A DNA stretch of 64,000 nucleotides from Patescibacteria group bacterium. Its GTDB lineage: Bacteria > Patescibacteriota > Minisyncoccia > Phycocordibacterales > SIBU01. Under the pieces are notes generated by a model. It saw only the letters and a list, made by a program, of their open reading frames with translations. It ran no database searches and was not told the origin of the DNA. Every line of letters starts with the position of its first letter. Position 1 is the stretch's first letter. The DNA lies in the NCBI GenBank assembly GCA_040390045.1, contig JAZJZC010000003.1, positions 115-64,114 of the forward strand. Direction: 5' to 3'. Shown here piece after piece: positions 9,015-56,629 of this stretch. The translations under genes were made by a program, and so were the position numbers.

Positions 9015-10736
9015 ATGACTTTAACCACACTGGGTTCTTTTGTTTGTAATCTGCAACAAACAGCTTTTCTTGGAAATTTTTTTGTACTAGCGGGACCGGC
9101 TTTTTTATACTATTCCTATGTGCCGATTGTTTTTATTGCGACATTTCTGGGATTTTACGTTTTTCTAAATGGTCAGCGGTCTATACAAAGCAGAACACTT
9201 CTCAGCCTTACGGTATTTTTTGTTCTTTGGATTTTAAATATTTTAGTTCAATGGATTTCGCCCTACCATACGATCATGATGCTTGCGTGGCAACTTACAG
9301 CAGTTTTTGAAGTTGGATTTTTTCTTATGGCGTTATACTTTTCATATACCTTTTTTAACAAAAAGGATCTTCCGTTTTCTGGAAAATTTTTATTATTTAT
9401 TTTGAGTTTGATTACAATTATTTTAGTTCCTACAAAATTCAATATACCGCTATATAACATCATTGATTGCGAGGGTATTACTGGACCATTGTGGAATGTT
9501 ATATATGCACTGGAGCCGGCAGCCATTGTTCTCATAATATATATGGGTTTTGATGCATATCGCAAAACGCAAGAATCACTATTCAAAAGGCAAATTATCT
9601 TTCTTTCTTCGGGACTGGCAATTTTCTTAACGTCATTTTTTCTTTCAAATCTCTTGGGTGAGATAACAAAAATTTATGAATTCAACCTTTGGGGCACACC
9701 GGGAATGCTTTTATTTTTAGGACTTTTGGCGTACATGATAGTCCAATTCGAAACCTTTAACGCCAAACTTCTCGGAGCCCAAGCTCTTGTTGCAGGTCTT
9801 TTGGCCCTTATTGCCTCAATTCTTTTTGTACCAACAGAATACGTTAGGGTCATTACCTCTATTACCCTTATCCCCGCTTTCATTTTTGGAACAATTCTAA
9901 TTCGAGGTGTTAAGCGCGAAGCAGAGCAACGCGAACAACTCAAAGACCTGAATACTAATTTGGAGAAAAAAGTCTCCGCCCAAACCCTCACCATTCGGCA
10001 TGCGTTGGAAGTCGAGAAAAAAGCCCATGGGGAGCTGGAAAAACTCGATCAAAACAAAAGCGATTTTATTATCATCACCCAACACCATCTTCGCACTCCG
10101 CTAGCCCAAATTCATTGGTACACCGATTCAATCCTCAACGGACTCTACGGCAACATCTCAGGAGAATTCGCTGGTGTCATTGCCAACATTGGCAAAAGTT
10201 CTGAGAAATTGATCAAAACTCTCAACAATTTCCTCGATATTTCGCAATTAAAAATTGGCACTCAAATCCTTTCTCTGGAACCCACGAATCTCAAAGAGAT
10301 TTTGGAAGAATTACTACAGGAAATGTCCCCTGAAATCATAAAGCGTAAAATCAGCGTTAACTTTAGAGAACACGATCCTTGGCCAACCGTTTCAGTTGAT
10401 CCTGCCCGAATGAGAGACTCCCTTTCTATTATTCTCGACAACGCCATCAAGTACAATATCGATGGCGGAACTATCGACATTTCAACCAGCGAAAAGAAAT
10501 CTCAATTGCAGTTGGAAATCAGTAACACCGGTATACTGCTGACCAAAGAAGACCGCTCCAGAATCTTCAAGGAAAGCTTCTTCCGTTCAAAAGAAGCTAA
10601 AAAAGTTAATCCGCTCGGCATGGGCGTTGGACTTCTCGTTGCCAAAACTATTGTGCAGGCACATCGAGGAACAATTTCAGTTGAGAGTAATGGAGAAGGG
10701 GGAATGAAAGTAAGGGTGGGAGCGAGAAGGGGATAA
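9015..10736 (+). CDS. Sensor histidine kinase with polytopic (7-8 TM) N-terminal sensor domain
   Basis: H-box HHLRTPLAQIHWYTD, HATPase_c G-boxes (NPLGMGVGLLVAKTIVQAHRGTISVES); many N-terminal hydrophobic helices. Confidence 0.85.
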   Translation: MTLTTLGSFVCNLQQTAFLGNFFVLAGPAFLYYSYVPIVFIATFLGFYVFLNGQRSIQSRTLLSLTVFFVLWILNILVQWISPYHTIMMLAWQLTAVFEVGFFLMALYFSYTFFNKKDLPFSGKFLLFILSLITIILVPTKFNIPLYNIIDCEGITGPLWNVIYALEPAAIVLIIYMGFDAYRKTQESLFKRQIIFLSSGLAIFLTSFFLSNLLGEITKIYEFNLWGTPGMLLFLGLLAYMIVQFETFNAKLLGAQALVAGLLALIASILFVPTEYVRVITSITLIPAFIFGTILIRGVKREAEQREQLKDLNTNLEKKVSAQTLTIRHALEVEKKAHGELEKLDQNKSDFIIITQHHLRTPLAQIHWYTDSILNGLYGNISGEFAGVIANIGKSSEKLIKTLNNFLDISQLKIGTQILSLEPTNLKEILEELLQEMSPEIIKRKISVNFREHDPWPTVSVDPARMRDSLSIILDNAIKYNIDGGTIDISTSEKKSQLQLEISNTGILLTKEDRSRIFKESFFRSKEAKKVNPLGMGVGLLVAKTIVQAHRGTISVESNGEGGMKVRVGARRG

Positions 10737-37302: not shown

Positions 37303-38649
37303 ATGGAAAACGAACAGCTTTGGAACAATGTTTTGCTAGAAATTGAATTGGCTGTTTCTAAAGCCAACTTTAATACGTGGTTTAAAGACACTCGCATCCT
37401 AAAACAGGAGGAGGGGGTAGTGTTTATTTCTGTGCCTAACGCTTTCGCAAAAGACTGGCTTTTTAACAAATACCATAAGACTGTTTTGAAGTCCCTACGG
37501 ACCCTGGCGGAAAATGTTCGAGCTCTTGAGTACGTTATAGCCAAAGATGATGGCAAACGAAGAGAGGTTGAGCCGGTGAGAAGCCCGAGTGCAAGCCCCG
37601 CTGCACAATTACCACTTCAAGATTTTTACATCGACAAAGATAACAACTTAAACCCAAAATACACCTTCGAATCCTTTGTTGTTGGACCTTTCAACGAACT
37701 TGCGCACGCAGCGGCTCAGGCGGTTGCTAAAAAACCTGGTAGCGCCTACAACCCTTTGTTTATCTACGGCAACACCGGCCACGGAAAAACTCACCTCATC
37801 CAAGCGGTAGGAAATTTCATAAAAAACCAAAACGCCGGCAAAAAAATTTTTTATGTCACCTCAGAAAAATTTGCAATTGATTACGTAAACGCCGTTCAAG
37901 TAAACAAAGTAAATCTTTTTAAGGAAAAATACCGAAAATATGACGTCCTTATCATGGACGACATTCAATTTTTCTCAAATAAAGAAAAAACTCAAGAGGA
38001 ACTTTTCCATTTGTTTAATAATCTCCACGAAAACAACAAACAAATTATATTTTCTTCTGATAAACACCCAAACTTTATACCAAACCTTGAGGACCGTTTA
38101 AAATCTCGTTTTTCCGCCGGCATGATTATTGACATTCCGACGCCTGATAGGGAATCGCGTTTAGCTATTCTTAAAACGAAAGCTCTTCTATCATCCGTTC
38201 ATATCGCTGACGACGTTTTAGAACACCTAGCCACTGCTATCGAGGGAAACATTCGCGAGCTTGAGGGAATGCTAAATGTTTTGGTCTGTCAATCACAACT
38301 GAAAGGTAAGGAACTTGGCTTAAGTGAAGTGAGAAATCTCATAAAAAATAGCTCGAAACCTAAAAAGGCTATTTCTGTAAAAGAAGTAACCAAAGCCGTG
38401 GCCAGCTTTTTTAATATTGAAGAATCAGACATCTACGAAAAAACCCGCAGGAAGGAAGTGGTGAAGCCGCGTCAGTTAGTTATGTACATTTTACGAGAAG
38501 ATTTTCGAATTTCTTATCCTTTAATCGGGCAGAAGCTCGGTGGACGCGATCACACAACCGTCATTCACTCCTGTGAGAAAATAAAAGAGGAGTTAAAATC
38601 AAATCCGGCCTTAATTCAAGAGATTGATCAGATCCGAACACTGCTTTAA
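37303..38649 (+). CDS. dnaA: Chromosomal replication initiator protein DnaA
   Basis: Walker A GNTGHGKTHL, C-terminal DnaA-box binding domain. Confidence 0.95.
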   Translation: MENEQLWNNVLLEIELAVSKANFNTWFKDTRILKQEEGVVFISVPNAFAKDWLFNKYHKTVLKSLRTLAENVRALEYVIAKDDGKRREVEPVRSPSASPAAQLPLQDFYIDKDNNLNPKYTFESFVVGPFNELAHAAAQAVAKKPGSAYNPLFIYGNTGHGKTHLIQAVGNFIKNQNAGKKIFYVTSEKFAIDYVNAVQVNKVNLFKEKYRKYDVLIMDDIQFFSNKEKTQEELFHLFNNLHENNKQIIFSSDKHPNFIPNLEDRLKSRFSAGMIIDIPTPDRESRLAILKTKALLSSVHIADDVLEHLATAIEGNIRELEGMLNVLVCQSQLKGKELGLSEVRNLIKNSSKPKKAISVKEVTKAVASFFNIEESDIYEKTRRKEVVKPRQLVMYILREDFRISYPLIGQKLGGRDHTTVIHSCEKIKEELKSNPALIQEIDQIRTLL

Positions 38650-38862: not shown

Positions 38863-39963
38863 ATGAAAATAGAGTGTGCACAAAACAAATTGCAGCAAGT
38901 GTTACAACAAGCTGAAAAAATTGCTGGAAGAAATTTAAATCTCCCTGTTCTTTCCTGTGTTCTTCTTGAAGCTAAAAAAGGTCAGCTCACGATTCGCTCC
39001 ACCAATCTTGATTTAGGGTTTGAAGCTGTAGTACCTGCAAAAATCGACGCCGAAGGCGTTCTTGCTGTTCCAGCTGCTGTGTTGAACTCCACTATTGCCA
39101 GTATTCCAAATGAAAAAAGTGTTAAATTTGAAAATACTGAATTAAACCTTACGATTACCACCAACAAAAGTAAAAGTACTATCAAATGCATGCCAACTGA
39201 AGATTTTCCAACCATACCCATGTTGGAAAAAACTCAATACTGCGAAATGCCAGCGGCAGACTTCGTAAAAGGCTTGAAGGCTGTTTGGTACAGCTCGTCG
39301 GTTTCCAGTATCAAACCAGAACTTTCAAGTGTTTGTATTTATTCGGAGGACGGAAGCTTAATTTTTGTGGCCACTGACTCATTCCGACTCGCTGAAAAAA
39401 AAGTGAAAACTAAAATTACTAAAGATTTTGAAAAAGTCTTGATTCCATTTAAAAATATTTCTGAAATTATTCGAACTTTAGAAAAAGCAGAAGGCAGTAT
39501 GGAAATTCGATTCAGCAAACATCAAATCGCCTTCGTGTTTAACGGAACCTACCTCACTTCTCGAGTTATCGATGGTAGTTTTCCTGATTACCATCAAATT
39601 ATTCCTAAGGAATTTAAAACCGAAGCGGTGCTTTTGAAAGAGGATCTCGTCCAGTCGCTCAAAGTCAGTACGATTTTTTCTGACTCCTTTAATCAGGTGA
39701 ATGTAGCGCTTGATCCAGAAGCCAAAAAATTTCAACTGACCACCAAAAACGTTTCTTTGGGAGAAAACAGCACCAAACTCGACGCCGCGCTTTCCGGCGA
39801 CCCTGCCGAAGCTAACTTTAATTTTCGTTATATCAACGACTGCTTGCAATCAATCGACTCAGACAGCCTTTCCCTCTCGTTTGCTGGTCCAAGCCGTCCT
39901 GTGGTCATCCGGGGCGTCTCTGATAAGAGTTTTACCTATCTCGTGATGCCGATGAATAAATAA
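38863..39963 (+). CDS. dnaN: DNA polymerase III beta sliding clamp
   Basis: 366 aa, three-domain clamp pattern, immediately after dnaA. Confidence 0.9.
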   Translation: MKIECAQNKLQQVLQQAEKIAGRNLNLPVLSCVLLEAKKGQLTIRSTNLDLGFEAVVPAKIDAEGVLAVPAAVLNSTIASIPNEKSVKFENTELNLTITTNKSKSTIKCMPTEDFPTIPMLEKTQYCEMPAADFVKGLKAVWYSSSVSSIKPELSSVCIYSEDGSLIFVATDSFRLAEKKVKTKITKDFEKVLIPFKNISEIIRTLEKAEGSMEIRFSKHQIAFVFNGTYLTSRVIDGSFPDYHQIIPKEFKTEAVLLKEDLVQSLKVSTIFSDSFNQVNVALDPEAKKFQLTTKNVSLGENSTKLDAALSGDPAEANFNFRYINDCLQSIDSDSLSLSFAGPSRPVVIRGVSDKSFTYLVMPMNK

Positions 39964-44785: not shown

Positions 44786-44986
44786 TTATTTTCGATGAAA
44801 CAATCGCTCGTGCCATAGTTTTATCAGATATAAATTTTTTTGCAAATCTACGCAAGCTGTGGATAAATGGCGCTCGGGCAGTTTTGGGAAAATGCGTGCT
44901 TCGGCAACACGGAAATCATAGTCGTTTCGTAACGAAAAACTCATAAGTCGCTTCGCTTCTGCGGCCAACTTCGTTTTTCTACTCAA
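44786..44986 (-). CDS. Hypothetical small basic protein
   Basis: 66-aa ORF only; contains a perfect DnaA-box 9-mer TGTGGATAA at 44851-44859 (probably chance). Confidence 0.3.
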   Translation of the reverse strand: MSRKTKLAAEAKRLMSFSLRNDYDFRVAEARIFPKLPERHLSTACVDLQKNLYLIKLWHERLFHRK

Positions 44987-46781: not shown

Positions 46782-49334
46782 TTGCTCACGATTTTCTATA
46801 ATGGTGGGATGTCTGAACGAATACTTTTGGGACAAGGTGATCTCGACAAAAAGGCGCACGAAGAAGTACCAGTTGGCCTTTTAGAGAATGCTTTACTTTT
46901 AAAAAATAGAGAAAAAAATTCTGCGCAGGCCGTTCGAGCATGGATTGCTGGTGATCAGAATAGGCTCGCGGCGGTTGAAGTCGCGTTGGCTGAGAAGGTT
47001 CAAGATGAACATGAAATAAGTTTCGCAACGCTTGAACTTTTGGGGGAAATTGAGCAAGAACGGGGACTTGTTTTTGTAAATGAAAAACTAGCTTGGAATT
47101 TAGAAATGAACCCCGATCTTTTTTCTGGTGATGCAGTGCGGTACATTCAAGAAAACATTCGAGGCACTAATCCTGAGGCCAATCTCGCATTTCACAAGTT
47201 TCTAGATTTTGTCCACCAACAGGCCGTCACCGTTCAGGACCCACCCCTTAGGCAAAAACTTAACAGCGCGAAGCAGCTTCACTCTAGAAGAGGGTTTTTT
47301 CTAGATTTTTGTTATTTGGCTGAGCGGGAACTTCCAAATTGTCGCAATTATCTCATTCAAAAACACGTTCAGGATATTTTAGAGACGTGGCGACAAGCAG
47401 GTTCAAAAAAGAAAGGTGCACTTCCAGGGATAGCTGGCGGTGCAAGTGATCAAACGATATATACGTTTTCTCATGTTGGGGAGTCATATAGAAACGCTTT
47501 GAAATTAGGCATCAATAGAGGTTACCCGCTAGCTCATCCCGTCCTTCCCATTTCTCCCGGATACTATGCTCAATATAGCAACGGCATAGTTGAAGATGTG
47601 TATCGCGAGCAAGGTGAGGTTTCAATAGAAGAAAAAGAGCGCCAGTATATTTCACAAAATGATCCGAGCGATGAATATATTTATGATGAAATAAATTCAT
47701 TCAATAGATCCAACCCAGGCCCCAACAGGAGAGGTCCGTCCAATGGTCTGCCATTATTCCAAAACATCTGGGATTTCGATAAACACTTGAAGGCAAGTGG
47801 GAGGACTTTTTATTATGACATCTCTAGAATTACCAACACGGATTTACATCCAGTTGTAGTCGGAGACTTTTATACAAGAAACCAACAGTACCGGCACACC
47901 CTAGGAGAAAAAGAAAACACTTCCCAGCCAATTTCTTACGATGATTTTATGCGTCAACTATATCCAGCAGGGGAATTGACTGAAGAAAAATTGTATCACT
48001 ACAAAAACCTGAGCAAGCTCCATATGCGAAAAAAAATCGAAGATGATTTCGGTTTTGATTTGTCGCAATCAGATTTGTGGACTCAGCGGATGTTTTTGGA
48101 GTTTTTAGAAACCCGAGATATTGAGAATGTGCAAAAACTTCAAAAATTTGTAAAAGAGTTCGGCTCAGCTGGTCTCAAAACCTTCCTTTCTCTTGAATAC
48201 GGTCCGGAATTTGGTGACGACATCATTGCACTCGGAGAAAAATTACCGAAAGCCGAAGCAGAAAAGATTTTTGCTAAGTATGGAGAATTGGTCGATGCAA
48301 CCACAGAAGCAGAAACTGCTTTACGTGAAAATTTTCCCAAGTCTCAAGTCACCCCAGAACTTGTTTCAGCCGCTCGAGAAAGTCTCTTAAAAAAGGGAAG
48401 AGACATGCTGGTTTCGTTCTCGGCGCAGGTCAAAGCCTCCGGTCAAGCTGGGCAAGCATTGTCTATCCCTAATCTAGAAAGAGAGCTTGAGCTATTGCGT
48501 GGAAACGCCGCGCTTTTCGCTGTGGGGTTTAAAGAGCTGTCGATGCGGGGAGAAAAATTAAATCTGGCTGAAATTAAAGGCGATGTCACCTTTGAGCAAG
48601 GGGTTTCTCCAGAAACATTTTCTCCTGCTGATCGAGAGCGGATGAAAGAATTGTATCGTATAAATTATGCCAAAACTCCCATATTCCAGAAAAAACTCAT
48701 TGAAGGGTTTGACCGTGTATTGAATGAGCCCGACAACCAATTTTATGTCTTACGATATGGGGGAGTTATCGAAGGTTTTTATCGTCTTGAAATAACGCCG
48801 CAAGACACGCTTTATTTTGGAGCCTTCAACTTAAATCCCAAGTACGCTGGTTCCGGTATCGGTGAAGCCTTAATGCGACAGTCTCTCGACGTACGGGCGA
48901 AAGAGGCAATCGTCAAGGCTAGTTGCACCGCTACTTTGCCAATCGCATCAAACTATATCGAGCGAGGTTTTGTCGGTACTAAAACAGAACAGGTGGATGA
49001 AGTGTATTCCATGAATATTATTCGCCACGATACCAAGGAAAATTTGTTTCGTTCAAAAGACCTCACAGAGCAGCAGATTATGGAAACCTGCGAAACCACT
49101 TCCGACTTTGTTTGCCGCAAAGTTCCATTGGGGCAACTTTCTTCCAAGGACTTTTCTCTCCTCGAAGAACAAGCCACAGACGGCGCTTCACAATTTGTTC
49201 TTACTCGTTACATTCGAGATAAGCAGAGTAAACAAAATGCGAGTGCATACCTTGTGTTTGAAAAAACCACTCAGGATACTTTAGATAACTTTTCTACTCC
49301 CGAGAAGCCGCTACGGTTTTCTCATCAGGAATAA
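46782..49334 (+). CDS. Large cytoplasmic protein of unknown function with C-terminal GNAT (acetyltransferase)-like domain
   Basis: 850 aa; C-terminal …YRLEITPQDTLYFGAFNLNPKYAGSGIGEALMRQ… resembles the GNAT motif A. Confidence 0.55.
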   Translation: MLTIFYNGGMSERILLGQGDLDKKAHEEVPVGLLENALLLKNREKNSAQAVRAWIAGDQNRLAAVEVALAEKVQDEHEISFATLELLGEIEQERGLVFVNEKLAWNLEMNPDLFSGDAVRYIQENIRGTNPEANLAFHKFLDFVHQQAVTVQDPPLRQKLNSAKQLHSRRGFFLDFCYLAERELPNCRNYLIQKHVQDILETWRQAGSKKKGALPGIAGGASDQTIYTFSHVGESYRNALKLGINRGYPLAHPVLPISPGYYAQYSNGIVEDVYREQGEVSIEEKERQYISQNDPSDEYIYDEINSFNRSNPGPNRRGPSNGLPLFQNIWDFDKHLKASGRTFYYDISRITNTDLHPVVVGDFYTRNQQYRHTLGEKENTSQPISYDDFMRQLYPAGELTEEKLYHYKNLSKLHMRKKIEDDFGFDLSQSDLWTQRMFLEFLETRDIENVQKLQKFVKEFGSAGLKTFLSLEYGPEFGDDIIALGEKLPKAEAEKIFAKYGELVDATTEAETALRENFPKSQVTPELVSAARESLLKKGRDMLVSFSAQVKASGQAGQALSIPNLERELELLRGNAALFAVGFKELSMRGEKLNLAEIKGDVTFEQGVSPETFSPADRERMKELYRINYAKTPIFQKKLIEGFDRVLNEPDNQFYVLRYGGVIEGFYRLEITPQDTLYFGAFNLNPKYAGSGIGEALMRQSLDVRAKEAIVKASCTATLPIASNYIERGFVGTKTEQVDEVYSMNIIRHDTKENLFRSKDLTEQQIMETCETTSDFVCRKVPLGQLSSKDFSLLEEQATDGASQFVLTRYIRDKQSKQNASAYLVFEKTTQDTLDNFSTPEKPLRFSHQE

Positions 49335-50088
49335 TTTTCCACTGGTACTCGAAAAGATTTCGGTGGAGTGCTGCAATGCGAGAGTCTTCAATGATGACTC
49401 CGATTTTTTGGTTTTCGGTCAGAGTGATGTACGAGACTTTGTTGTCATAAATTTGCATGATGGTATGCGATGGTGCGGTAGGGAAGGCAATAAATTTATT
49501 TTCAGTAATGTCCGGATTGTAGTTTTGTAACAGTTTCCGTGCTTCCGGTGAATCAAAGATCAACCCTTTTTTCTTGGTATTAAATTTTCTTCGCTTGGCG
49601 ACGTAGTCTTTGTTTATTTCCGAAATATATTTTTCAATAGAAATAATATCCGAGTAGGCATAAATTTCTGATTGAGCGGTGAGCGAATCTTCCAACACTT
49701 TTTTCATACCATCCATCCCCTCATAAAATTGCACGTTAGGTTTTCCCGATAGCAGATTAAAATCAGAAACCATTTTTCCCATGATTCCGCCAAGACTCGC
49801 CTCTGCGGTTTTTATAGCTTCTTCGCGTTTTTGCAGAAGATCGCGGAGCTTTCCTGGGTGGGTAGGGAAGAAGAGTGTGATCTTTCCAACGTTATCCCTT
49901 TTTTCTACCAAACCAAAGACTATCAACTGTTCTAGTATTTTGTACGCAAGGCTTCTTTTTACCCCCGATTTTTGCGCTACCACTCGGGCTGGCATAAGGC
50001 CGTTTTTTAGTAAGGATTCATACACCAAGGACTGCTCTTTATTGAGCCCGAGTTCTCCTAAAAATTTTTCGTATTGAATGTTTTCCAT
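49294..50088 (-). CDS. TrmB-family HTH transcriptional regulator
   Basis: N-terminal wHTH LGLNKEQSLVYESLLKNGLMPARVVAQKSGVKRSLAYKILEQLIVFGLVEK; start placed at MENIQYEKF. Confidence 0.6.
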   Translation of the reverse strand: MENIQYEKFLGELGLNKEQSLVYESLLKNGLMPARVVAQKSGVKRSLAYKILEQLIVFGLVEKRDNVGKITLFFPTHPGKLRDLLQKREEAIKTAEASLGGIMGKMVSDFNLLSGKPNVQFYEGMDGMKKVLEDSLTAQSEIYAYSDIISIEKYISEINKDYVAKRRKFNTKKKGLIFDSPEARKLLQNYNPDITENKFIAFPTAPSHTIMQIYDNKVSYITLTENQKIGVIIEDSRIAALHRNLFEYQWKIIPDEKTVAASRE

Positions 50089-50129
50089 GCCACAAGTATA
50101 GCATTTATATGTTTTTGTCACAAGTATAT

Positions 50130-50882
50130 GACAATATTGATATGTGGATAAGCCATATTTAACAAGCTGTTACAGCTAAATAGCCGTATTTGCCATAGTT
50201 AATTGACAGAACAAATTAAAACTGTTACTATTTTGCGCAGAGAGTTTAGGTCATTGAGGAGATAGCTAAAAGATTGTTCCCCGCCTCTAGTTCGAAAGAA
50301 AGGTACTACGGCCTTCCGCCACAGCGGACTAAGCGTAGAAAGAAGAGAGGAAGGGGAGAGAAACAGCCTTTTGAATATCTTGTTTCGAATGATGAGTGTT
50401 CTACATATAGTCAGGCTTCGAAACCCTACTAGATGAAGGAGCTATGTCTTTAAGACAAACTTATCGCACGGAGTTCGGCGAGTAATCGCCAGGACATCGA
50501 TGGCGCAAAAAGTCTAACCCGCTTTATGCGTCAAAATGTCCTTACGCCAAGAAGCCGCACAAAAAGAGAGTTGTGCGGAAGTGAAAGGAAAGAGTAAGGA
50601 AGATGTTTGAAAAATAAATAGCGAATCAGGAAAACGCGAAACAAGAAATGTGTTTTGCAATGTTGTTCCTCTTCGCCCCACTCATTAAAAGTTTTTACTT
50701 GAGGTTGGTGGGGTAAGAGGGAATGCAAATGCAATTCCTTTTGTGGCGTTCACGTTCGACAAGCAAGCGGGGACAGTCTAGACCCCCGCTAGCTTGTCGA
50801 AAAATTCTTAGAGACATATCTGAAATGCCGAAAAAAGGCAGGATGTGGAAAGTGGAGATAGTATCAACATTTTCATTTTGAG
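50130..50882. other. ~750-bp noncoding region at the left edge of the high-GC island; multiple hairpins, no supportable ORF
   Basis: GC rises from ~40% to ~50% across it; hairpins at 50553-50578 and 50757-50799; isolated perfect DnaA-box 9-mer TGTGGATAA at 50142-50150. Confidence 0.4.
50757..50799. promoter_or_regulatory. Strong GC-rich hairpin (8+6 bp stem, 11-nt loop containing GTCTAGAC) without a flanking U-tract
   Basis: CGACAAGCaaGCGGGGacagtctagacCCCCGCtaGCTTGTCG. Confidence 0.4.
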
Positions 50883-51239
50883 ATGAGTGAATTCACCATG
50901 ATTAAAATTAACTTCTCCGGCCACCCGGTGGCCGGATTCGACGTTGCTCCTTTGGTGGGAGCCAACCTGCCTTTCGAGGCAGCTACCTTGGCCGAGACGG
51001 TTCGGGAACTCATTTTGGCCCTCCCTGGCCGGGATGAGCTCCTCAAAGGGGCCAAGGCGGAGATAATTCTCCCCGGCCTTGGCAGTGCCGTGGCCGTTTT
51101 GTTGGCCGAATGGCATGGCCAGTTCGGCAACTGGCCCTCGATCCGGTGGGCCGTCCGCGGGGAGAAGGGGTTCACTTGGCCCGACGAGGCCCGGGTGGAC
51201 TTGAACTCCGTGCGGGAGTCCGCACGGACCGCTCGCTAG
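50883..51239 (+). CDS. Hypothetical protein (high-GC island)
   Basis: 118-aa ORF with GC3-rich codon usage distinct from the host; no recognisable motif. Confidence 0.5.
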   Translation: MSEFTMIKINFSGHPVAGFDVAPLVGANLPFEAATLAETVRELILALPGRDELLKGAKAEIILPGLGSAVAVLLAEWHGQFGNWPSIRWAVRGEKGFTWPDEARVDLNSVRESARTAR

Positions 51240-51402
51240 TTGCGGACAAAAATCCCAGAGCAATCTGGTTGCGACAAAATCCGGTCGTGTAAATCGAGGT
51301 AAAAAGTTTGTCCCCGTTTTCTTGGAAAAATGGAGAGTCGTGAAGGAGCAGAACTTCCGTCAGGATGACTGTCGACAATAGTCATGAGGGTTAAATTTAT
51401 CT

Positions 51403-51428
51403 GGAGAAGTTTTGGTTAAAACTTCTCC
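51403..51428. repeat. Perfect hairpin GGAGAAGTTTT-ggtt-AAAACTTCTCC (island hairpin family copy 1), preceded by a second hairpin at 51365-51385
   Basis: Exact 11-bp inverted arms; loop context TTTTGGTTAAAA is shared with copy 2. Confidence 0.6.
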
Positions 51429-51522
51429 TACTTATCAAGTTCATAAAATTATTTTGTGAACTTTTAGGTATCAGAGATGTTCTTTCCAGAAATGGTGGCG
51501 CAAATATTTCGCGCTTCTGTTT

Positions 51523-51969
51523 ATGGAAAGAACACTTGTATTGATAAAACCTTTGGGGCTCCAGAATTCACTTCTGGAAATCCTCCGGGCTTTGAAGTCG
51601 ATTGGCACTATTGTTGAAAGGCAATTGGTTCCGGTTTCAAGTGAGCGGATAGCCGCCCATTACGCCGAACACTCCACAAAGGCGTGGTTCGGCAAGATCG
51701 TGGGTTACTACCACGGTCAGACAGTGATGGCGCTGGTCCTCGAGGGGCCCGACGTCACCGCACGCTTGCGTGGAATTGTCGGACCATCCGACCCGCGGAA
51801 GGCAGCACCCGGACAAATTCGGGCGCTCGTCCTGGCCAAGTTCCAGGATAAAAAAGACGGGTGGCGAGCGATAGAGCTCGTCACTTCTGGCGTGGACAAT
51901 TTTATCCACGCCTCGGACTCTCCGGAGGCCGCCGAGCGAGAAATCGCTCTGTGGTTTCCAAAAAAATAA
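51523..51969 (+). CDS. ndk: Nucleoside diphosphate kinase homolog (divergent)
   Basis: LVLIKPLG…HYAEH…VMALVLEG…NFIHASDSPEAAEREIALWF aligns with the NDK catalytic His loop NxxHGSD and the conserved Lys, Tyr and Glu. Confidence 0.75.
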   Translation: MERTLVLIKPLGLQNSLLEILRALKSIGTIVERQLVPVSSERIAAHYAEHSTKAWFGKIVGYYHGQTVMALVLEGPDVTARLRGIVGPSDPRKAAPGQIRALVLAKFQDKKDGWRAIELVTSGVDNFIHASDSPEAAEREIALWFPKK

Positions 51970-52099
51970 TTTGGGTTTTCAAAGGAGAAGCAAAGGGTTT
52001 TGCTTCTCCTCTTTATTTGGCTCGCGGTAACCGTATGTACGGAAGTATCGTTGGTCAATCAAGAAACCATTCAGCGCAGTGTTGCGCTAGAAAGGAAGT

Positions 52100-52567
52100 A
52101 TGGATATAAAAAAACTTTTCGCCTTGGCAGATAGGGCGAAAACAATTGAGGCAGGGCAAAATTATGCCCTGCCCAATGCGGTGTTTTGCGTTCTCCTCGA
52201 TGTCCTATTCAAGGGCAAAGAGGGAGCGCAGAGTCTCAGGGTGGAACTTGAGACTGAAGATTCAGACGGGTTGTATGTCAACGAGGCGTATTACGACCTG
52301 TTCGTTCTCCGTCATTCCGACGGAGAAGGCTTGTGCATCCCCGCGCCGCTTCTCCATGTGGAGACGGCGATGACCCTAACGAAGAGGGCGCTCGTCACTG
52401 TCAGAGGACAGCACGACCGGCAACATGAGCCGGCCGAATCGGAAGAGTTCTTTAGGCTGTGGGAACAATTCCACGAAGAAGTCTCGCCGGCGAGACTTCT
52501 CGACTCTGTCCGTGAACATCTCAGCAAGTCTGCCCGCTTGGCAGCGGGTTTCCTTGAGACTGAATAA
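52100..52567 (+). CDS. Hypothetical protein (high-GC island)
   Basis: 155-aa ORF, island codon usage, followed by an intrinsic terminator. Confidence 0.45.
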   Translation: MDIKKLFALADRAKTIEAGQNYALPNAVFCVLLDVLFKGKEGAQSLRVELETEDSDGLYVNEAYYDLFVLRHSDGEGLCIPAPLLHVETAMTLTKRALVTVRGQHDRQHEPAESEEFFRLWEQFHEEVSPARLLDSVREHLSKSARLAAGFLETE

Positions 52568-52637
52568 AATAAGTTGAAGGTTACAAGGGAAGAGTGACTT
52601 CCTAATCCTCCGGGATAAATTGTCGCAAGGGTTTATC

Positions 52638-52668
52638 GAGCACCAATATCTTTTGGTGCTCGGGTTTT
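52638..52668 (+). terminator. Intrinsic terminator after the 52100-52567 ORF
   Basis: GAGCACCAA tatctt TTGGTGCTC followed by GGGTTTTTG. Confidence 0.6.
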
Positions 52669-52669
52669 T

Positions 52670-52697
52670 GGAGAAACTTTTGGTTAAAAGTTTCTCC
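52670..52697. repeat. Perfect hairpin GGAGAAACTTTT-ggtt-AAAAGTTTCTCC (island hairpin family copy 2)
   Basis: Exact 12-bp inverted arms; the stem differs from copy 1 by compensatory substitutions; same ggtt loop. Confidence 0.6.
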
Positions 52698-52788
52698 TCT
52701 CGATCGGGCTTGCAATTAATTTTGTAAATCCGTAGAGAGCAATCTCGAACCGCGCTCCGCAGGCGTAACCATCTGTGGAAAATGCCTT

Positions 52789-53607
52789 TTGAAAGGAGGG
52801 CGAAAAATGAATCAGTTCTATAAAGTGCAAAAGGGGATTGGGTCGCCGGGGAAACTCTGGACTGGGGATAAAAATATCCCCGCGGAGCCAACGGTGGCCG
52901 AGGCAAAACTGTTCGAGATGACGTGCGCATGCGGTGCAACAACTCGAAAGCTCTACCTCGACAACCGCCTCACGGGAGACACACTGAAAGCGGTCGACAT
53001 TTCGAAGATTCCCCTTCTCCACATCGCGACGGGTGGTGTTGGTTCCATCTCCTCCGCTACTTCGGTGGAGGGGGAGAAGGGAATCCACTCCAGCAAAGAA
53101 AACCAGTTGCAGAGCACCTGCAACTGGTCTGGCCGCATCGGGGGATACGCGGTGGTGAACCCGGTCGCTGTCATCAGCGGCCGAAAGATATATCATCCGC
53201 CTCCAGCCACTCAGGGTTTTCATTGGGAGAACGTCTATAGCGGGTCCACTCTCACCGAGTGGATTTTGGTGGCGGACGATGTCACTCGGCACTCACTGCC
53301 GGTGATTAGCCTCCAGCGGACCTGCCCGATTTGCCGCAAAAAGCAGGAGGTTGCGGAGCTTCCCGAAGATCTCACGGTCACTCGCGATGAGCTGACAGTC
53401 GCAGGACTGTCGGAGGAGCAACTGGAGGAAGCGCTCTCTTCTATGGTTAACATGGAGGGAGGTGGGGAAGTTAGAACTTCTCCAAATCTTTCTGCAAGGT
53501 TACTCCTTGCCTACACCCATTCCGAGAGTTGTTGGTGCTCGGAGGCAATTGTGGCGGCCATCAAGGCAGCCAAAAAGCGTTCGGTGCAATCGCCGGCCGT
53601 CGTCTGA
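52789..53607 (+). CDS. Hypothetical protein with Cys-x2-Cys pairs (possible zinc ribbon), high-GC island
   Basis: 272-aa ORF; CACGATTRK … CPICRKK motifs. Confidence 0.45.
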   Translation: MKGGRKMNQFYKVQKGIGSPGKLWTGDKNIPAEPTVAEAKLFEMTCACGATTRKLYLDNRLTGDTLKAVDISKIPLLHIATGGVGSISSATSVEGEKGIHSSKENQLQSTCNWSGRIGGYAVVNPVAVISGRKIYHPPPATQGFHWENVYSGSTLTEWILVADDVTRHSLPVISLQRTCPICRKKQEVAELPEDLTVTRDELTVAGLSEEQLEEALSSMVNMEGGGEVRTSPNLSARLLLAYTHSESCWCSEAIVAAIKAAKKRSVQSPAVV

Positions 53608-53832
53608 AAATTTTGCGCGTTTTAATTACAAAACGCGTTGCACCCGCAAAGTGGGAAAGGGTTAACACGTGAACGTTGCGGCGTTCATTAAAAAAACAAT
53701 TTTCCAGCACTGCCTTGGTCGGTGGTGTTGGACTTTATCGGGCTCGCGAATTTATTTCGTGCGTCCGTAGAGGTGGCCATTTTTTAAAAAATATCTAATC
53801 AGGTTCAGAATATAAAATTTAAATTTTGAATT

Positions 53833-54930
53833 TTGTATTCTGAACCTGATGACAGAAAAAAATTAAAAAATGTGAATACACCAAATCAAACAATGGTTGA
53901 GTTGGCGGCAAAGTACAAAAAAGCCGCCGATGAAAAAATGGAAGAAATCGTACACCTCTCAAAAGTTTCGCAGGACTCTGCGTACAGAGAGGGATTCAGG
54001 CACGAGGCTCTTTGTCGAGCTCAAACGGCCGCCGAGACTGACAAGGTCTTTTTTAGTGGCCTCGGGGTCAAGGGTGTTCTCATCCTTGGCATTTCAACTC
54101 TCGAGCCTAAAAAAGCTCAGAGCGTTATCGCCTCGTCAGGCGGTTGGAAGTCACACGCGAATTCGACCCTGCTCTGCCTAGATGGAGAGAAAGGGGAAAT
54201 TCGTAAGAACAAAGCGGGGACATGCTGGATCATCGATCTTGCATCTCCGCGGCGGACAGCCATGTTTGCGTGGGAATCCGGACCAAAGTCAGTTCGGCTC
54301 GCTGGACCTCGACTTAATACCACCAACGGCGCAGCTCACTGGTGTGGACTTGTGTCGGAGATGATGCCGTTCAATACGGAAATGTCCCCGCACACAGCTT
54401 CGTTTCTTAAGCGAGCCGTAGCTTGCATGACCGAACATGGGATGACCCCCAAGCAATGGGAGCGTGCCGAAAATGCTCGGCGTACTGCCGAGAGCGAACG
54501 ACGATCCGAGATCATCTGTGCCGCCACGAAGGCTGGGCAAATTGACGGTGTCGTTGTCTGTGTTGAGTGTGGTTGCAACCCAACTCGGGGTGAGAATTAT
54601 ATTCTTGCTGCCGAGGAGCTCGCCGGTACTACTGGCCCTGTGCCAGAAAATCTCGCGGAGTTAGTCCACGCGAAAATCGCGGCTACCAAACTGGCGGCCG
54701 AAGAAGCTCGGATTATGGCCGAGCTGAAATCTGAACAGCTTCGAATTACTGAGGCAAAAATCGAGGCGGAAGTCACAGCAAAACAACAGGTAGAAACTGA
54801 AAAAGTTTGCCGTTTGATCGGTGTCTCTTTTGCCGAATGGCAAGGACTGACGCCAAAACAACAAAGACAAGCGCTTCATCGCGCTCGTCTCGCGGGTAAA
54901 CTTCAAACGCAGAAATACAGAAATAAATGA
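53833..54930 (+). CDS. Hypothetical protein with Cys cluster (CVECGC) and C-terminal coiled coil, high-GC island
   Basis: 365-aa ORF; C-terminal A/E/K-rich helical region. Confidence 0.5.
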   Translation: MYSEPDDRKKLKNVNTPNQTMVELAAKYKKAADEKMEEIVHLSKVSQDSAYREGFRHEALCRAQTAAETDKVFFSGLGVKGVLILGISTLEPKKAQSVIASSGGWKSHANSTLLCLDGEKGEIRKNKAGTCWIIDLASPRRTAMFAWESGPKSVRLAGPRLNTTNGAAHWCGLVSEMMPFNTEMSPHTASFLKRAVACMTEHGMTPKQWERAENARRTAESERRSEIICAATKAGQIDGVVVCVECGCNPTRGENYILAAEELAGTTGPVPENLAELVHAKIAATKLAAEEARIMAELKSEQLRITEAKIEAEVTAKQQVETEKVCRLIGVSFAEWQGLTPKQQRQALHRARLAGKLQTQKYRNK

Positions 54931-55238
54931 ATCTTCAAGATTTAGTCCTCCTCCGCGTTTGGGTGGAGGGAAATCACAGTGCTCTGGAATGGAAGGTCGG
55001 TGATCGGACATTCCAGATACTGGGAATCAAAGGCGCGGAAGGGGGCTACGAGAGGTTTTTTGATCGCGGGAAGCACCCGATGCGCCAGAGAATCTCAGAA
55101 CAAGAGGTGATGAAGGCGCTCGAAAACGCCATATCACCTCTCGAACTTTACCAGAACGAAAAAGGTTCTGGGGAGTTTTTTCCCAACGCTGAAACGGCAC
55201 TTGATGCCGCGAAGCGTTGGGTCGGTCAGCGGGTCTGA
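54927..55238 (+). CDS. Hypothetical protein (high-GC island), 4-nt overlap with the upstream ORF
   Basis: 103-aa ORF translationally coupled (ATGA overlap) to 53833-54930. Confidence 0.4.
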   Translation: MNLQDLVLLRVWVEGNHSALEWKVGDRTFQILGIKGAEGGYERFFDRGKHPMRQRISEQEVMKALENAISPLELYQNEKGSGEFFPNAETALDAAKRWVGQRV

Positions 55239-55513
55239 CCAAATCACGGAGCGCGGACCTCCCTTAATTGTCCGACAAGTTTGCAAGTTCACGGAGAGTC
55301 TTGCAAAATTTCAGGGTTAAAAATTCTCCACTTCTAATGCAGCCATCATTCTAATATTCTTGTCCGTATCAAATGTAACCAATTATTTTAAAGGTACATT
55401 TGGGCGGGTTAAATTACGAGATTGATGCCGGTCACAAGCCCGAATAAATTGCAGAGTGGGATGTGTACCCCAAGGGGTTCACGAAGCGTGTGTTTCTCTC
55501 TTCGCACACAAAA

Positions 55514-55550
55514 CAAAACCGCCCCGATGTAGATCGGGGCGGTTTTGTTT
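55514..55550. terminator. Bidirectional intrinsic terminator immediately downstream of ruvB
   Basis: AAAACCGCCCCGAT gtag ATCGGGGCGGTTTTGTTTT. Confidence 0.75.
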
Positions 55551-56629
55551 TACAAAAGTTTTTCCTGAGCCGAAGATTTATTTTTAATTTTAAGGTGTCC
55601 GTAAGCTTTCGCTGTGGCAGTCCGGCCGCGTGGAGTTCGCTCGATAAGGCCGAGCTGAAGCAGGTAGGGTTCGTTGACTTCCTCGATAGTGGCTTGTTCT
55701 TCGGAGAGCGCGGCGGCGAGGGTATTAAGTCCCACTGGTCCACCATCAAATTTTTCGATAAGGGTATTTAAAAGAGAGCGATCAGAATGCCCGAGACCGA
55801 GTTCGTCAATGCCGAGAAGGGCCAGTGCTTTGTCCACAATGTCTTTAGATAATTTTCCTTTATTCACTTGCGCAAAATCTCTCGCCCGCTTCAAAAGATA
55901 GTTGGCGGTTCGCGGCGTGAAGCGGCTGCGTTTGGCAATTTCTGCTCCAGCCAATTTTTCTACCTCAACTCCTAAAATTTTGGCAGACCGGCGCACGATT
56001 TCTTCGATCTCTTCGTTTGAATAAAATTCCAAACGGAAAACGCCACCACCAAAGCGTGAACGTAATGGTGAAGAGAGAAGTGCGATGCGTGTAGTTGCGG
56101 CAATGAGGGTAAACGGCGGTAGTTCAAGCTGAATGGTTCGAGCTGAAGGACCTTTGCCGATAATAATGTCGAGCTGACCCGACTCCATGGCAGGGTAGAG
56201 GACTTCTTCGATAGCTTTATTGAGTCGATGAATTTCATCGATGAACAAAATGTCGCCTGGAGCGAGGTTGGTGAGTACCGAGGCAAGATCGCCCACCTTT
56301 TCAATGGCAGGTCCCGAAGTAATTTTGATTTGAGCACCGATTTCTTTAGCGATTAGGTGAGCGAGGGTGGTTTTTCCGAGCCCCGGGGGTCCATAAAAGA
56401 GCAAATGTTCCGGCGGATGCTTCCGTTCGGCGGCAGCAGTGAGCAAAATCCTCAAGTTTTCCTTGATATTTTTTTGCCCAATGTAATCTTCCCACAAACT
56501 CGGTCTTAGAGCCTGATCAAGAAAGATTTCTTCTTCCACTAAAACTTCCTTTTTACCCTTATTGTTAGGGCTATTTTCCTCTTCCTGCGAGCCAGGTTGT
56601 GTAAGTTTATTTACGGAACTTCTTGACAT
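55550..56629 (-). CDS. ruvB: Holliday junction branch migration ATPase RuvB
   Basis: Walker [18 protein letters not shown], Walker [12 protein letters not shown]-terminal winged helix. Confidence 0.95.

Follow-up and report, generated by a model that had tools for sequence, protein, structure and literature searches.

Ring nucleases serve as off-switches in type III CRISPR loci, and viruses use them as anti-CRISPRs; long operons may be governed by leader RNAs, such as riboswitches and processive antitermination RNAs of the EAR or put kind. The bacteria of the phylum Patescibacteria, most of them episymbionts with reduced genomes, rarely have CRISPR systems. In this work, we describe a conserved array of GC-rich genes in the chromosome of a Patescibacteria group bacterium, located between a trmB-like gene and ruvB within a 64-kb stretch of DNA (assembly GCA_040390045.1, contig JAZJZC010000003.1), hereafter the window. 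Related loci and contigs used for comparison are indicated by L-numbers (L003, L006, L024 and so on). The first gene of the array is predicted to encode a Csx15-family protein, and the corresponding arrays of other species appear to contain members of at least five ring-nuclease families, one at a time. The whole is best explained, with a probability of about 55%, as a conserved and regulated array that sequesters, opens and recycles nucleotide signals of the cyclic oligoadenylate (cOA) type.

The closest described systems share some, not all, of these features. Extrinsic ring nucleases of type III CRISPR systems (Crn1-3/Csx3, Csx16, Csx20) and the CorA-associated NrN DHH phosphodiesterase belong to the same families that are found, usually one each, in the related arrays; unlike type III loci, however, the arrays are GC-rich and headed by a leader RNA, and in the loci examined neither Cas10 nor any other cas gene nor a CRISPR array was called closer than 10 kb. 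Twelve contexts were searched for cas Pfam families in the genes called over that distance, likewise without result; hidden Markov models (HMMs) for cas genes were applied to the array ORFs only. Viral and plasmid AcrIII-1 (DUF1874) genes and anti-defence islands offer a second parallel, with stand-alone cOA-degrading genes lying outside CRISPR loci, amid small orphan open reading frames (ORFs) in a compositionally distinct, variable region. In contrast to these mobile islands, the array is fixed near dnaA in many species, lacks mobility genes and features regulatory DNA of native composition.

ORF1, the first gene of the array (50883-51239, plus strand, 118 amino acids (aa), GC 0.62, GC at third codon positions (GC3) 0.76), probably codes for a Csx15-family protein, a CARF-like sponge or slow ring nuclease for cyclic tetra-adenylate (cA4). 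It scores above the curated cutoff of the NCBIfam Csx15 model NF040560 (39.3 bits against 35, E 6.7e-10), matches the PADLOC Csx15 model (E 2.6e-6), and its top PDB sequence matches, although weak (E 0.05-0.09), are both Csx15 structures, 9tet and 9teu. Within these alignments INFSGHPVA pairs with LNFSGHPVS and LAEWHGQFGNWP with LAELHGRLGHFP; the protein contains NFSGHP, EWHGQFGNWP and a C-terminal VRESARTAR, of the form R-x3-R-x2-R. The residues conserved in PfCsx15 are S9, H11, H82, R116, R120 and R123, two of the six being mutationally important for cA4 binding or cleavage (PMC13148439). All six of these cA4-site residues are present in ORF1, the arginine spacing being read from the sequence and not from a structural alignment.

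Csx15 can bind cA4 as a sponge, without enzymatic action, and PfCsx15, too, is an orphan (PMC13148439); 25% of the genomes containing Csx15 are without type III CRISPR (PMC12409355). ORF1 resembles PfCsx15 and CliCsx15 in the S-x-H of motif I, the central histidine and the C-terminal arginines, and shares with PfCsx15 the orphan condition. It differs from the solved Csx15 proteins in being shorter (113-118 aa against 139-146) and only weakly similar in pairwise comparison, and in sitting beside a nucleoside-diphosphate kinase (NDK) gene in a conserved non-CRISPR array. A copy 66% identical, also beside NDK, is found in L025, and no close relative was detected in IMG/VR. The probable start codon is at 50883, public gene calls using instead a start that yields 113 aa. 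The sequence-only reading, a first description of this DNA made from its letters alone, had found no recognisable family in the island except NDK: this holds for ORF3-6, but not for ORF1.

The cargo of the related arrays was analyzed by scanning individual proteins and 70 array ORFs from 20 loci, defence HMMs being applied to the array ORFs only. The recognisable cargo appears to be dominated by cOA ring nucleases or sponges (Csx15, Csx3/Crn3, Csx20, Csx16-like and AcrIII-1/Crn2-like). Matches were obtained with Csx3-AAA of PADLOC (5 members, best E 8e-59), Cas_csx3, PF09620 (3 members, best E 2.7e-20), Csx15 (2 members, best E 4.4e-8 in PADLOC), Csx20 (1 member, E 4e-5 in NCBIfam and 6e-6 in PADLOC), Csx16 (1 member, E 5e-4) and the CorA-associated DHH hydrolase DHH_CorA, an NrN-like phosphodiesterase (1 member, E 4.5e-35). 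Other matches concern NDK (3 members, best E 3.7e-37), an HrpA/B-like DEAH helicase (3 members, E 3.7e-63 for one of them with NCBIfam HrpA), HD_4 (1 member, E 4e-12), a radical-SAM protein (1 member, E 3.9e-29 with Fer4_12) and an AAA or IetA-like protein (1 member, E 6.3e-27 with AAA). A three-member cluster placed right after the AAA gene accounts for the Cas_csx3 matches, and the top PDB match of this cluster is the Csx3 protein AF_1864. In L012, the first gene after TrmB matches PF08960 (STIV B116-like); B116 itself is assigned to DUF1874, which corresponds to the ring-nuclease family AcrIII-1/Crn2 (10.1101/778746). In this way, as many as five families of ring nucleases are found at the first or second array slot in different genomes, usually one per array. 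This distribution fits published data, according to which ring-nuclease families act equivalently and only ~4% of ring-nuclease-positive loci hold more than one (PMC12409355).

The 50.1-55.5-kb stretch is a genuine chromosomal locus, kept across a Patescibacteria lineage (Paceibacteria / 'Taylorbacteria'-like). A 31.7-kb Logan contig (run SRR26324623), carrying the RuvB and NDK genes of the window, crosses both GC boundaries and is 100% identical to it along 20,447 nt; Logan represents a different assembler, possibly applied to the same read set as the source metagenome-assembled genome. Synteny is the stronger evidence. The order GNAT-TrmB, array, RuvB recurs in L006, L024, L011/L012 and L051. 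Syntenic GC-rich arrays were found in L003, L006, L008/L017, L011/L012, L020, L024, L025 and L051, and a TrmB homologue stands immediately 5' of such an array in L003, L006, L008/L017, L011/L012, L024, L025, L042 and L051. ORF4 homologues sit in plus-strand clusters of unannotated genes just downstream of a divergent TrmB, the L006 cluster stopping at ruvB, and the same setting is observed for ORF5 homologues of Taylorbacteria (L011/L012) and for NDK homologues (L024, L025). In the window, dnaA (37303-38649) and dnaN (38863-39963) put ~11 kb between dnaA and the array, a distance also seen in L011 and L051; in the latter, which represents a more distant lineage, the order is dnaA-dnaN-recF-...-GNAT-TrmB-array-...-RuvB.

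These data bear directly on the possibility, raised by the sequence-only reading, of an assembly chimera, in which a high-GC fragment would have been wrongly attached to a low-GC genome. The abrupt GC change at both ends and the metagenomic origin of the assembly would suit it; yet the second assembler produced identical joins, the GC shifts coincide with ORF boundaries and not with two break points, TrmB-array-RuvB was independently assembled in at least five other species and samples, with the same gene order, and leader and spacers can be aligned to those of relatives across the supposed junction. The idea is close to refuted.

Protein identities between the window and its relatives are of the same order for array and flanking genes. 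In the comparison with L006, they are 76% for TrmB, 79% for RuvB and 55% for GNAT, and 55%, 43% and 51% for ORF3, ORF4 and ORF6, respectively; with L024, they are 73% for TrmB, 79% for RuvB and 59% for GNAT, and 90% for NDK and 51% for ORF6; with L011, RuvB is 76% and ORF5 66% identical. Content and order are nonetheless variable: ORF3-ORF4 in the window is ORF4-ORF3 in L003 and L006, and other families are found elsewhere. The array is, in other words, fast-changing but conserved, its genes being drawn from one shared pool. Homologues at the same site, with a similar GC excess, are what the sequence-only reading had itself indicated as evidence against a recent horizontal acquisition. That proposal is thus not supported as it was meant, and for practical purposes a chimera is excluded as well. 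What survives of it is the variability of content and order, together with the presence of the ORF4 and ORF5 families on uniformly high-GC IMG/VR contigs with phage genes. A HicA/HicB toxin-antitoxin pair was also noticed within a Taylorbacteria array (L011 11672-12131).

The six plus-strand ORFs described by the sequence-only reading between a minus-strand TrmB-like gene and ruvB were confirmed by annotation, and so was their unusual composition. In the 44 ORFs outside the island GC is 0.423 on average (sd 0.033, max 0.48) and GC3 is 0.40 (max 0.52), whereas the six island ORFs (50883-55238) range from 0.52 to 0.62 in GC and from 0.50 to 0.76 in GC3; none of the 44 host ORFs is as rich in GC as any of the six (Mann-Whitney p=6e-8), and first and second codon positions (GC1, GC2) are elevated too. 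The 4.5-kb segment richest in GC begins at 50751 (0.514), the maximum elsewhere in the window being 0.461. The jump to ~60% initially reported is therefore real as an anomaly, but overstated in size: GC is 0.515 across 50750-55300 and, among the ORFs, ~0.62 is reached only in ORF1. The five intra-island spacers have a host-like GC of 0.36-0.45, so that the anomaly is a property of the ORFs and not of the DNA segment. GC-biased gene conversion and transfer of the whole fragment were considered as sources of the excess and are disfavoured, since the spacers are not GC-rich. The feature is shared by the relatives, whose arrays exceed their surroundings by 5-16 GC points in every compared case; among the 16 tabulated contigs carrying the RNA motif described below, GC is higher downstream than upstream of the motif in all, by 5-16 points in 15.

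Hallmarks of genomic islands are accordingly found only in part. Composition deviates, in the ORFs only; no integrase, transposase or PHROG match was found among the island ORFs, nor any flanking direct repeat, and the 64-kb window is free of tRNAs, of Rfam matches at gathering score and of tandem or CRISPR arrays, so that the reported absence of an adjacent integrase, transposase or tRNA proved correct. The site is not empty in relatives, where homologous GC-rich arrays occupy it. As for phage structural, replication or lysis genes, ORF1-6 gave no PHROG match, and 10 array proteins taken from relatives matched only a helicase.

Between trmB and the leader lies a control region (50122-50237, plus strand), featuring a DnaA box, repeated AGCCrTATTT blocks and a strong sigma-70-type promoter, all invariant or nearly so in the window, L003, L006 and L024. 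The promoter (TTGACA-17-TACTAT, 50203-50231, plus strand) scores 10/12 in the promoter scan and has a TG. The DnaA box is perfect and does not vary among these four genomes (TGTGGATAA, or TTATCCACA on the minus strand; 50143-50151), the only other perfect one in the window being found at 44858-44866; DnaA might regulate the locus. A replication origin in this spacer was rejected, as boxes are scattered and not clustered (25 one-mismatch sites in 64 kb, 13.8 expected).

The region 50122-50882 is noncoding, as initially proposed for the leader: indels relative to the relatives are not multiples of three. It can be aligned with the equivalent spacers of L003, L006 and L024, big insertions falling between conserved blocks. 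Its central part (50238-50735, plus strand) is a candidate structured leader RNA of ~500 nt, either a new noncoding RNA or a long 5' leader, on the basis of conservation and folding. Over ~500 nt, L003 and L006 share 72-73% of its DNA sequence, a level equal to that of the trmB coding sequence, and the 498-nt RNA has a minimum free energy of -160.3 kcal/mol (z = -5.2), none of 100 shuffles being as stable. Comparison with 4,227 Rfam families gave no match at gathering score in the window and only noise at E<=1 in 50000-55700. Such a structured RNA, placed right after the promoter of a multi-gene unit with internal terminator-like hairpins, is reminiscent of known operon-control leaders, from which it differs in having no sequence or structure match among those families. 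The L006 leader contains, at ~9155-9450, a ~300-nt insertion between 17-nt inverted repeats (GAGCACTAACTTGTGCG ... CGCACAAGTTAGTGCTC), which could be an element resembling a miniature inverted-repeat transposable element or an expansion stem.

In the 3' part of the leader, UUCCUCUUCGCCyCAC pairs with GUGrGGUAAGAGGG. The corresponding hairpin (50656-50729, plus strand) was modelled as R1 (79 positions, 24 bp, stem UUCCUCUUCGCC...GGUAAGAGGG). An exact-pattern scan of metagenome contigs for the R1 stem retrieved 24 loci, 21 true and 3 chance matches in high-GC coding DNA. On 20 distinct sequences 94% of the cells are paired, with double changes at 7 pairs and four invariant G.U pairs, and the covariation score was reached by none of 500 shuffles. 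The covariance model assigns 61-94 bits to the plus (gene) strand in 28 loci and 13-23 bits to the opposite one; the copies in L008/L017 and L019/L020 were found by this model and were not ascertained by the seed pattern. Copies are located at L003 5546-5624, L006 9842-9918, L008 3490-3598, L020 873-952 and L024 4280-4357, and also in L026-L049. R1 occurs once per array, at the 5' end, and marks the start of such arrays in ~25 Patescibacteria contigs; the genes that follow encode the AAA partner of Csx3, Csx20-like and Csx15 proteins, a 325-aa family ('fam11') and a DEAH helicase. In some contigs a short form of the leader is present, with the promoter ~100-135 nt 5' of R1, while the long form of the window and its close relatives has an extra upstream domain of ~400 nt. 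The R1 pattern is not matched in IMG/VR. R1 is not universal, being absent from L011, L013, L025 and L051 even with filters off, and a tRNA- or tmRNA-like reading of the 'CGATTCC' element 3' of R1 was dropped, ARAGORN finding nothing.

A second RNA element, restricted to these arrays, recurs between the cistrons. It is a module of two hairpins, found in the window as copy 1 (51399-51468, hairpin 1 being GGAGAAGUUUUGGUUAAAACUUCUCC and hairpin 2 following it; nhmmer E 9e-10; fold z = -5.6, the forward strand stabler than the reverse complement), copy 2 (51976-52046, E 3e-10) and copy 3 (52662-52738, E 1.8e-14; fold z = -4.6), all on the plus strand, along with a weak copy of hairpin 2 (53733-53771, plus strand, E 2.4e-4). 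Hairpin 1, whose stem varies with compensating changes, is joined by a 1-2-nt linker to hairpin 2, the base of which is made of conserved CUUAU and AUAGG or UGUAGAG blocks. By nhmmer profiles 22 copies were identified, 3-4 per array (four each in L003, L006 and L024) and always on the gene strand, with others in L008, L031, L044 and L046. They lie 60-110 nt 5' of start codons and fall into two subtypes, one always 5' of ORF3-family genes: copy 2 belongs to this subtype and its orthologues precede ORF3 homologues in L003, L006 and L024. All of the 21 folded copies adopt the module shape (mean z -4.8) and 20 are stabler on the forward strand than on the reverse complement, which argues for an RNA rather than a DNA structure. 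The modules match no Rfam family, either at gathering score in the window or at E<=1 in 50000-55700. The family of perfect hairpins that the sequence-only reading had considered the island's own, on which the nhmmer profiles were based, stands up: GGAGAA-N-TTCTCC is found three times in the window, always within the island (0.2 expected), and its RNA form, GGAGAA-N-UUCUCC, also inside the arrays of L003, L006 and L024. A reading of hairpin 2 as a fixed-spacing sigma-70 promoter was rejected: the loop varies in length and the flanking conserved bases pair together, and the distance from the TTGAGC-like hexamer of the module to any -10-like element varies with it.

Repeated intergenic stem-loop motifs flanking small variable ORFs, whose order changes between relatives, are typical of the promoter early stem-loop (PeSL) cassettes of T4-type phages (PMC2839356, PMC4122927), and all of this is found here too. 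Order differs between close relatives as recombination between repeats would yield, a shuffling that we infer in the present case. Unlike PeSL, the modules lie in a bacterial chromosome, consist of paired RNA hairpins with variable loops and contain no evident fixed-spacing promoter. One-directional ORFs with imperfect hairpin repeats, beside a fixed platform with a strong promoter, also recall integron cassette arrays. The arrays, however, lack an IntI integrase, their hairpins are without attC cores (GTTRRRY / RYYYAAC) and are stabler on the coding strand as RNA, and the adjacent gene is a TrmB regulator.

Other hairpins were found at single positions. An 18-bp one (50755-50801, plus strand, inverted repeat I5) lies in the 5' untranslated region (UTR) of ORF1; together with ~80 nt, up to ATGAGTGAA, it matches L006 12933-13000 (21 nt exactly, 84% over 69 nt), where, with compensatory changes in the stem, it precedes an unrelated 325-aa gene. 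The same 5' leader is thus fused to unrelated genes in the two genomes. In the NDK 5' UTR, a hairpin with 27-nt arms (51478-51534, plus strand, inverted repeat I2) holds the NDK start codon (51523) in its 3' arm; the arrangement is kept 5' of the L024 NDK and may serve translational control. A terminator-like hairpin was detected by the terminator scan at 52636-52663 (plus strand). Upstream of ORF5, an AT-rich, near-perfect palindrome (53798-53850, plus strand, inverted repeat I1; 26-nt arms, 1-nt centre, 92% complementary) could be an operator or a terminator; Rfam gave for it only sub-threshold, plant-miRNA-like noise. Between ORF6 and the 3' end of ruvB, a perfect 19-bp hairpin (55510-55551, without assigned strand, 100% complementary as inverted repeat I3) with adjoining A and T runs, 92-93% identical to L006 16313-16373 in both orientations, probably terminates transcription in the two directions and bounds the array on the right. 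A sub-threshold twister-P1 match just 5' of it, at 55385-55462 (22.7 bits, gathering score 67.2) is probably noise.

ORF2 (51523-51969, plus strand) encodes an NDK of a Patescibacteria-specific subfamily (Pfam NDK, E 6.7e-29). It scores 100.9 bits with PF00334 (cutoff 27) and has the catalytic histidine motif NFIHASD in its translation, but remains under the NCBIfam NDK equivalog cutoffs (103.7 against 155), which marks it as a divergent subfamily. Its kin form ~48 clusters at 63-92% identity (Taylorbacteria, Magasanikbacteria), after which identity falls to ~45% for ordinary NDKs; homologues in the same array position were found in L024 (90%) and L025 (65%).

The other four genes, all on the plus strand, belong to conserved, Patescibacteria-restricted families. 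None of ORF3-6 has a match in Pfam, PHROGs, NCBIfam or PADLOC, and PDB sequence and profile searches (ORF3 and ORF6; alignments of ORF3, ORF4 and ORF5) gave nothing below E 0.27; two of them yield confident structure models, without match to solved structures. ORF3 (52100-52567, 155 aa) is 55-59% identical to homologues in the L003 and L006 arrays and 118 representative clusters were assigned to its family at E<=1e-3, larger proteins sometimes containing the domain in fused or repeated form. Residues 46-96, its central part, are repeated seven times in P0278 (1961 aa) and joined to other sequence in further representatives, and may be an independent small domain. ORF4 (52807-53607, 266 aa, likely start 52807; 71 clusters) has a beta-rich core, a CPxC pair, a helical tail and the motifs GKLWTG, GGVGS and WNWSGRxGG. 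ORF5 (53893-54930, 345 aa, likely start 53893) is made of an alpha/beta core (DGEKGEIRxN..TCWVIDL, GPRLNTTNGGAHWCG), a long coiled coil and a C-terminal PKQQRLALHRARLAG helix; its family has 29 clusters and occurs in 6 of 185,579 GTDB species representatives. Of the Cys-x2-Cys clusters to which attention had been drawn, the CPxC of ORF4 is kept only in part of the family; the ORF5 cysteines are not conserved. ORF6 (54927-55238, 103 aa), the start of which overlaps the ORF5 stop (ATGA, 54927-54930), is the final array gene in the window, L003, L006 and L024, the homologues being 48-51% identical.

Where a source is named, members of the ORF4 and ORF5 families come from Patescibacteria, Paceibacterota, Taylorbacteria or a 'bacterium', the lone exception among the genome records being a 5-kb contig binned as Bacteroidota. 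No tblastn match to either protein was found in 50,697 GenBank phage records. In IMG/VR, an ORF5 homologue (40% identity) adjoins a helicase-exonuclease-RecT module in L021 (IMGVR_UViG_3300042261_000601), and proteins with the ORF4 domain (33-34% identity), extended at the C terminus, lie near an endolysin in L022/L023 (IMGVR_UViG_3300042382_000558, IMGVR_UViG_3300044731_001608); these three viral contigs are uniformly high in GC (0.58-0.61). A solitary ORF4 homologue, of GC 0.50, was seen within a 0.36 background.

On the left, the array is preceded by the divergent gene of a TrmB-family winged-helix regulator (49294-50121, minus strand; PF01978, E 5.8e-11), with which the gene of a GNAT-domain protein (46782-49334, plus strand; 800-960 aa across loci) is always paired; ruvB (55550-56629, minus strand) is the right neighbour. 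The acetyltransferase domain of the GNAT protein is C-terminal, and the two genes are convergent, their 3' ends overlapping by 41 nt. The pair is intact in all lineages examined, even at TrmB identities as low as 27-34%, and may be a member of the same system as the array. In L003, two genes for PF05635 proteins (23S rRNA intervening-sequence protein; 1-234 and 4376-4753) flank it.

Taken together, the array is conserved, regulated and cassette-like, and its identifiable members handle cyclic oligoadenylates and nucleotides. We propose that the Csx15 protein of this genome binds, and perhaps slowly cleaves, cA4, and that NDK and the four conserved ORF3-6 proteins would act with it or downstream of it. 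Expression would be set by the leader RNA, the TrmB protein or both. The hairpin pairs would provide RNA-level punctuation between cistrons (protection of 3' or 5' ends, processing, or read-through control of a long transcript) and, being repeats, would permit the swapping of ORFs as cassettes. Such an exchange would explain both the variable order and the confinement of the GC excess to ORFs amid AT-richer spacers. The signal itself might come from an own system encoded elsewhere, from a phage, or from the host cell of this presumably episymbiotic bacterium.

Its main rival, which we consider unlikely, sees the region 3' of trmB as an old hotspot for recurrent import from a high-GC mobile pool, the ORFs being foreign and the ring nucleases phage-type anti-defence cargo. 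An import of this kind would suit the increase in GC1, GC2 and GC3 alike, with the resulting shift in amino-acid composition, the different content and order in close relatives, and the HicAB pair inside the L011 array; AcrIII-1 and Csx20 are, besides, known from phages (PMC12409355). The ORF4 and ORF5 families do occur on uniformly high-GC IMG/VR contigs (0.58-0.61) with phage helicase, exonuclease, RecT and endolysin genes, and the lone ORF4 homologue stands out at 0.50 from its 0.36 background; on the other hand, IMG/VR has neither the R1 pattern nor a close ORF1 relative, ORF4 and ORF5 are unmatched in the GenBank phage records and the island ORFs in PHROGs. Nor is import favoured by the lack of integrase, transposase, tRNA and flanking direct repeat, by a leader and spacers that are host-like in GC and kept among relatives, and by ORF5 and NDK identities that follow those of the flanking genes.

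The second rival, also rather improbable, makes the array a housekeeping regulon for nucleotide salvage or RNA turnover, in which NDK, the DHH nanoRNase-like enzyme, the HD hydrolase, a kinase-like P-loop protein and the DEAH helicase would recycle nucleotides in organisms unable to make them. The small CARF-like proteins would have been recruited to bind oligonucleotides, in a role unconnected with immunity, and high GC would result from selection on highly expressed or stable mRNAs. Five ring-nuclease families in one variable slot look like interchangeable cA4 quenchers and not like a fixed pathway, the cA4-site residues are retained in ORF1, gene turnover is quick and most members are lineage-restricted orphans; NDK, however, is highly conserved (up to 92% identity) and resembles the lineage's own enzyme, the locus has a fixed chromosomal position near dnaA and is present in many species, and Csx15 is found without type III CRISPR in 25% of genomes (PMC12409355), PfCsx15 being an orphan (PMC13148439). 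Finally, and quite improbably in our opinion, the array may be a cOA-responsive survival or counter-defence operon, the anti-type-III-CRISPR, anti-cOA arsenal of a cellular parasite. The leader RNA would then sense a cOA-related nucleotide or modify RNA polymerase, GC-rich, hairpin-capped mRNAs would outlast cOA-activated RNases and so allow ring-nuclease production, the signal quenched would be that of the episymbiont's host cell or of a phage rather than of an own CRISPR system, and ORF3-6 would represent new folds and new proteins for anti-defence or for the handling of cOA.

Several points weigh against the preferred explanation, that of an array handling cOA-type signals. A direct tie to cOA is available for one of the six window proteins only, Csx15, and NDK may play a plain housekeeping role. 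A cOA synthase (Cas10, CD-NTase) was not seen, defence HMMs having been applied to the array ORFs only. In the relatives several matches are weak, such as Csx20 (23.9 bits, cutoff 70), Csx16 (E 5e-4) and the B116-like protein (19.8, cutoff 26), and the bulk scans give counts per family and not the matching ORFs, whose assignment rests on clustering. Neither regulator is universal, R1 being absent from some arrays (L011, L025, L051) and TrmB from many R1 contigs. For most R1 copies the stem columns were fixed by the search pattern, so that their invariance is partly a matter of ascertainment. Lastly, we infer that the genes share one transcript, that this RNA is processed and that cassettes are exchanged.

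The sequence-only reading had singled out this island as the likeliest place in the window for an undescribed functional module, and the present analysis supports that judgement. Two new candidate structured RNA elements become available for study, the leader hairpin, present in ~25 contigs, and the repeated two-hairpin intercistronic module, along with orphan protein families amenable to testing (ORF3-6 and others), two of which have confident predicted folds and no solved counterpart. A GC excess confined to ORFs, and persisting across species at saturating divergence, is unusual, cassette exchange and selection on mRNA being candidate causes. If the proposed reading is true, cOA signalling would matter to Patescibacteria in an undescribed setting, be it a synthase of their own, phage infection or conflict between host and symbiont.

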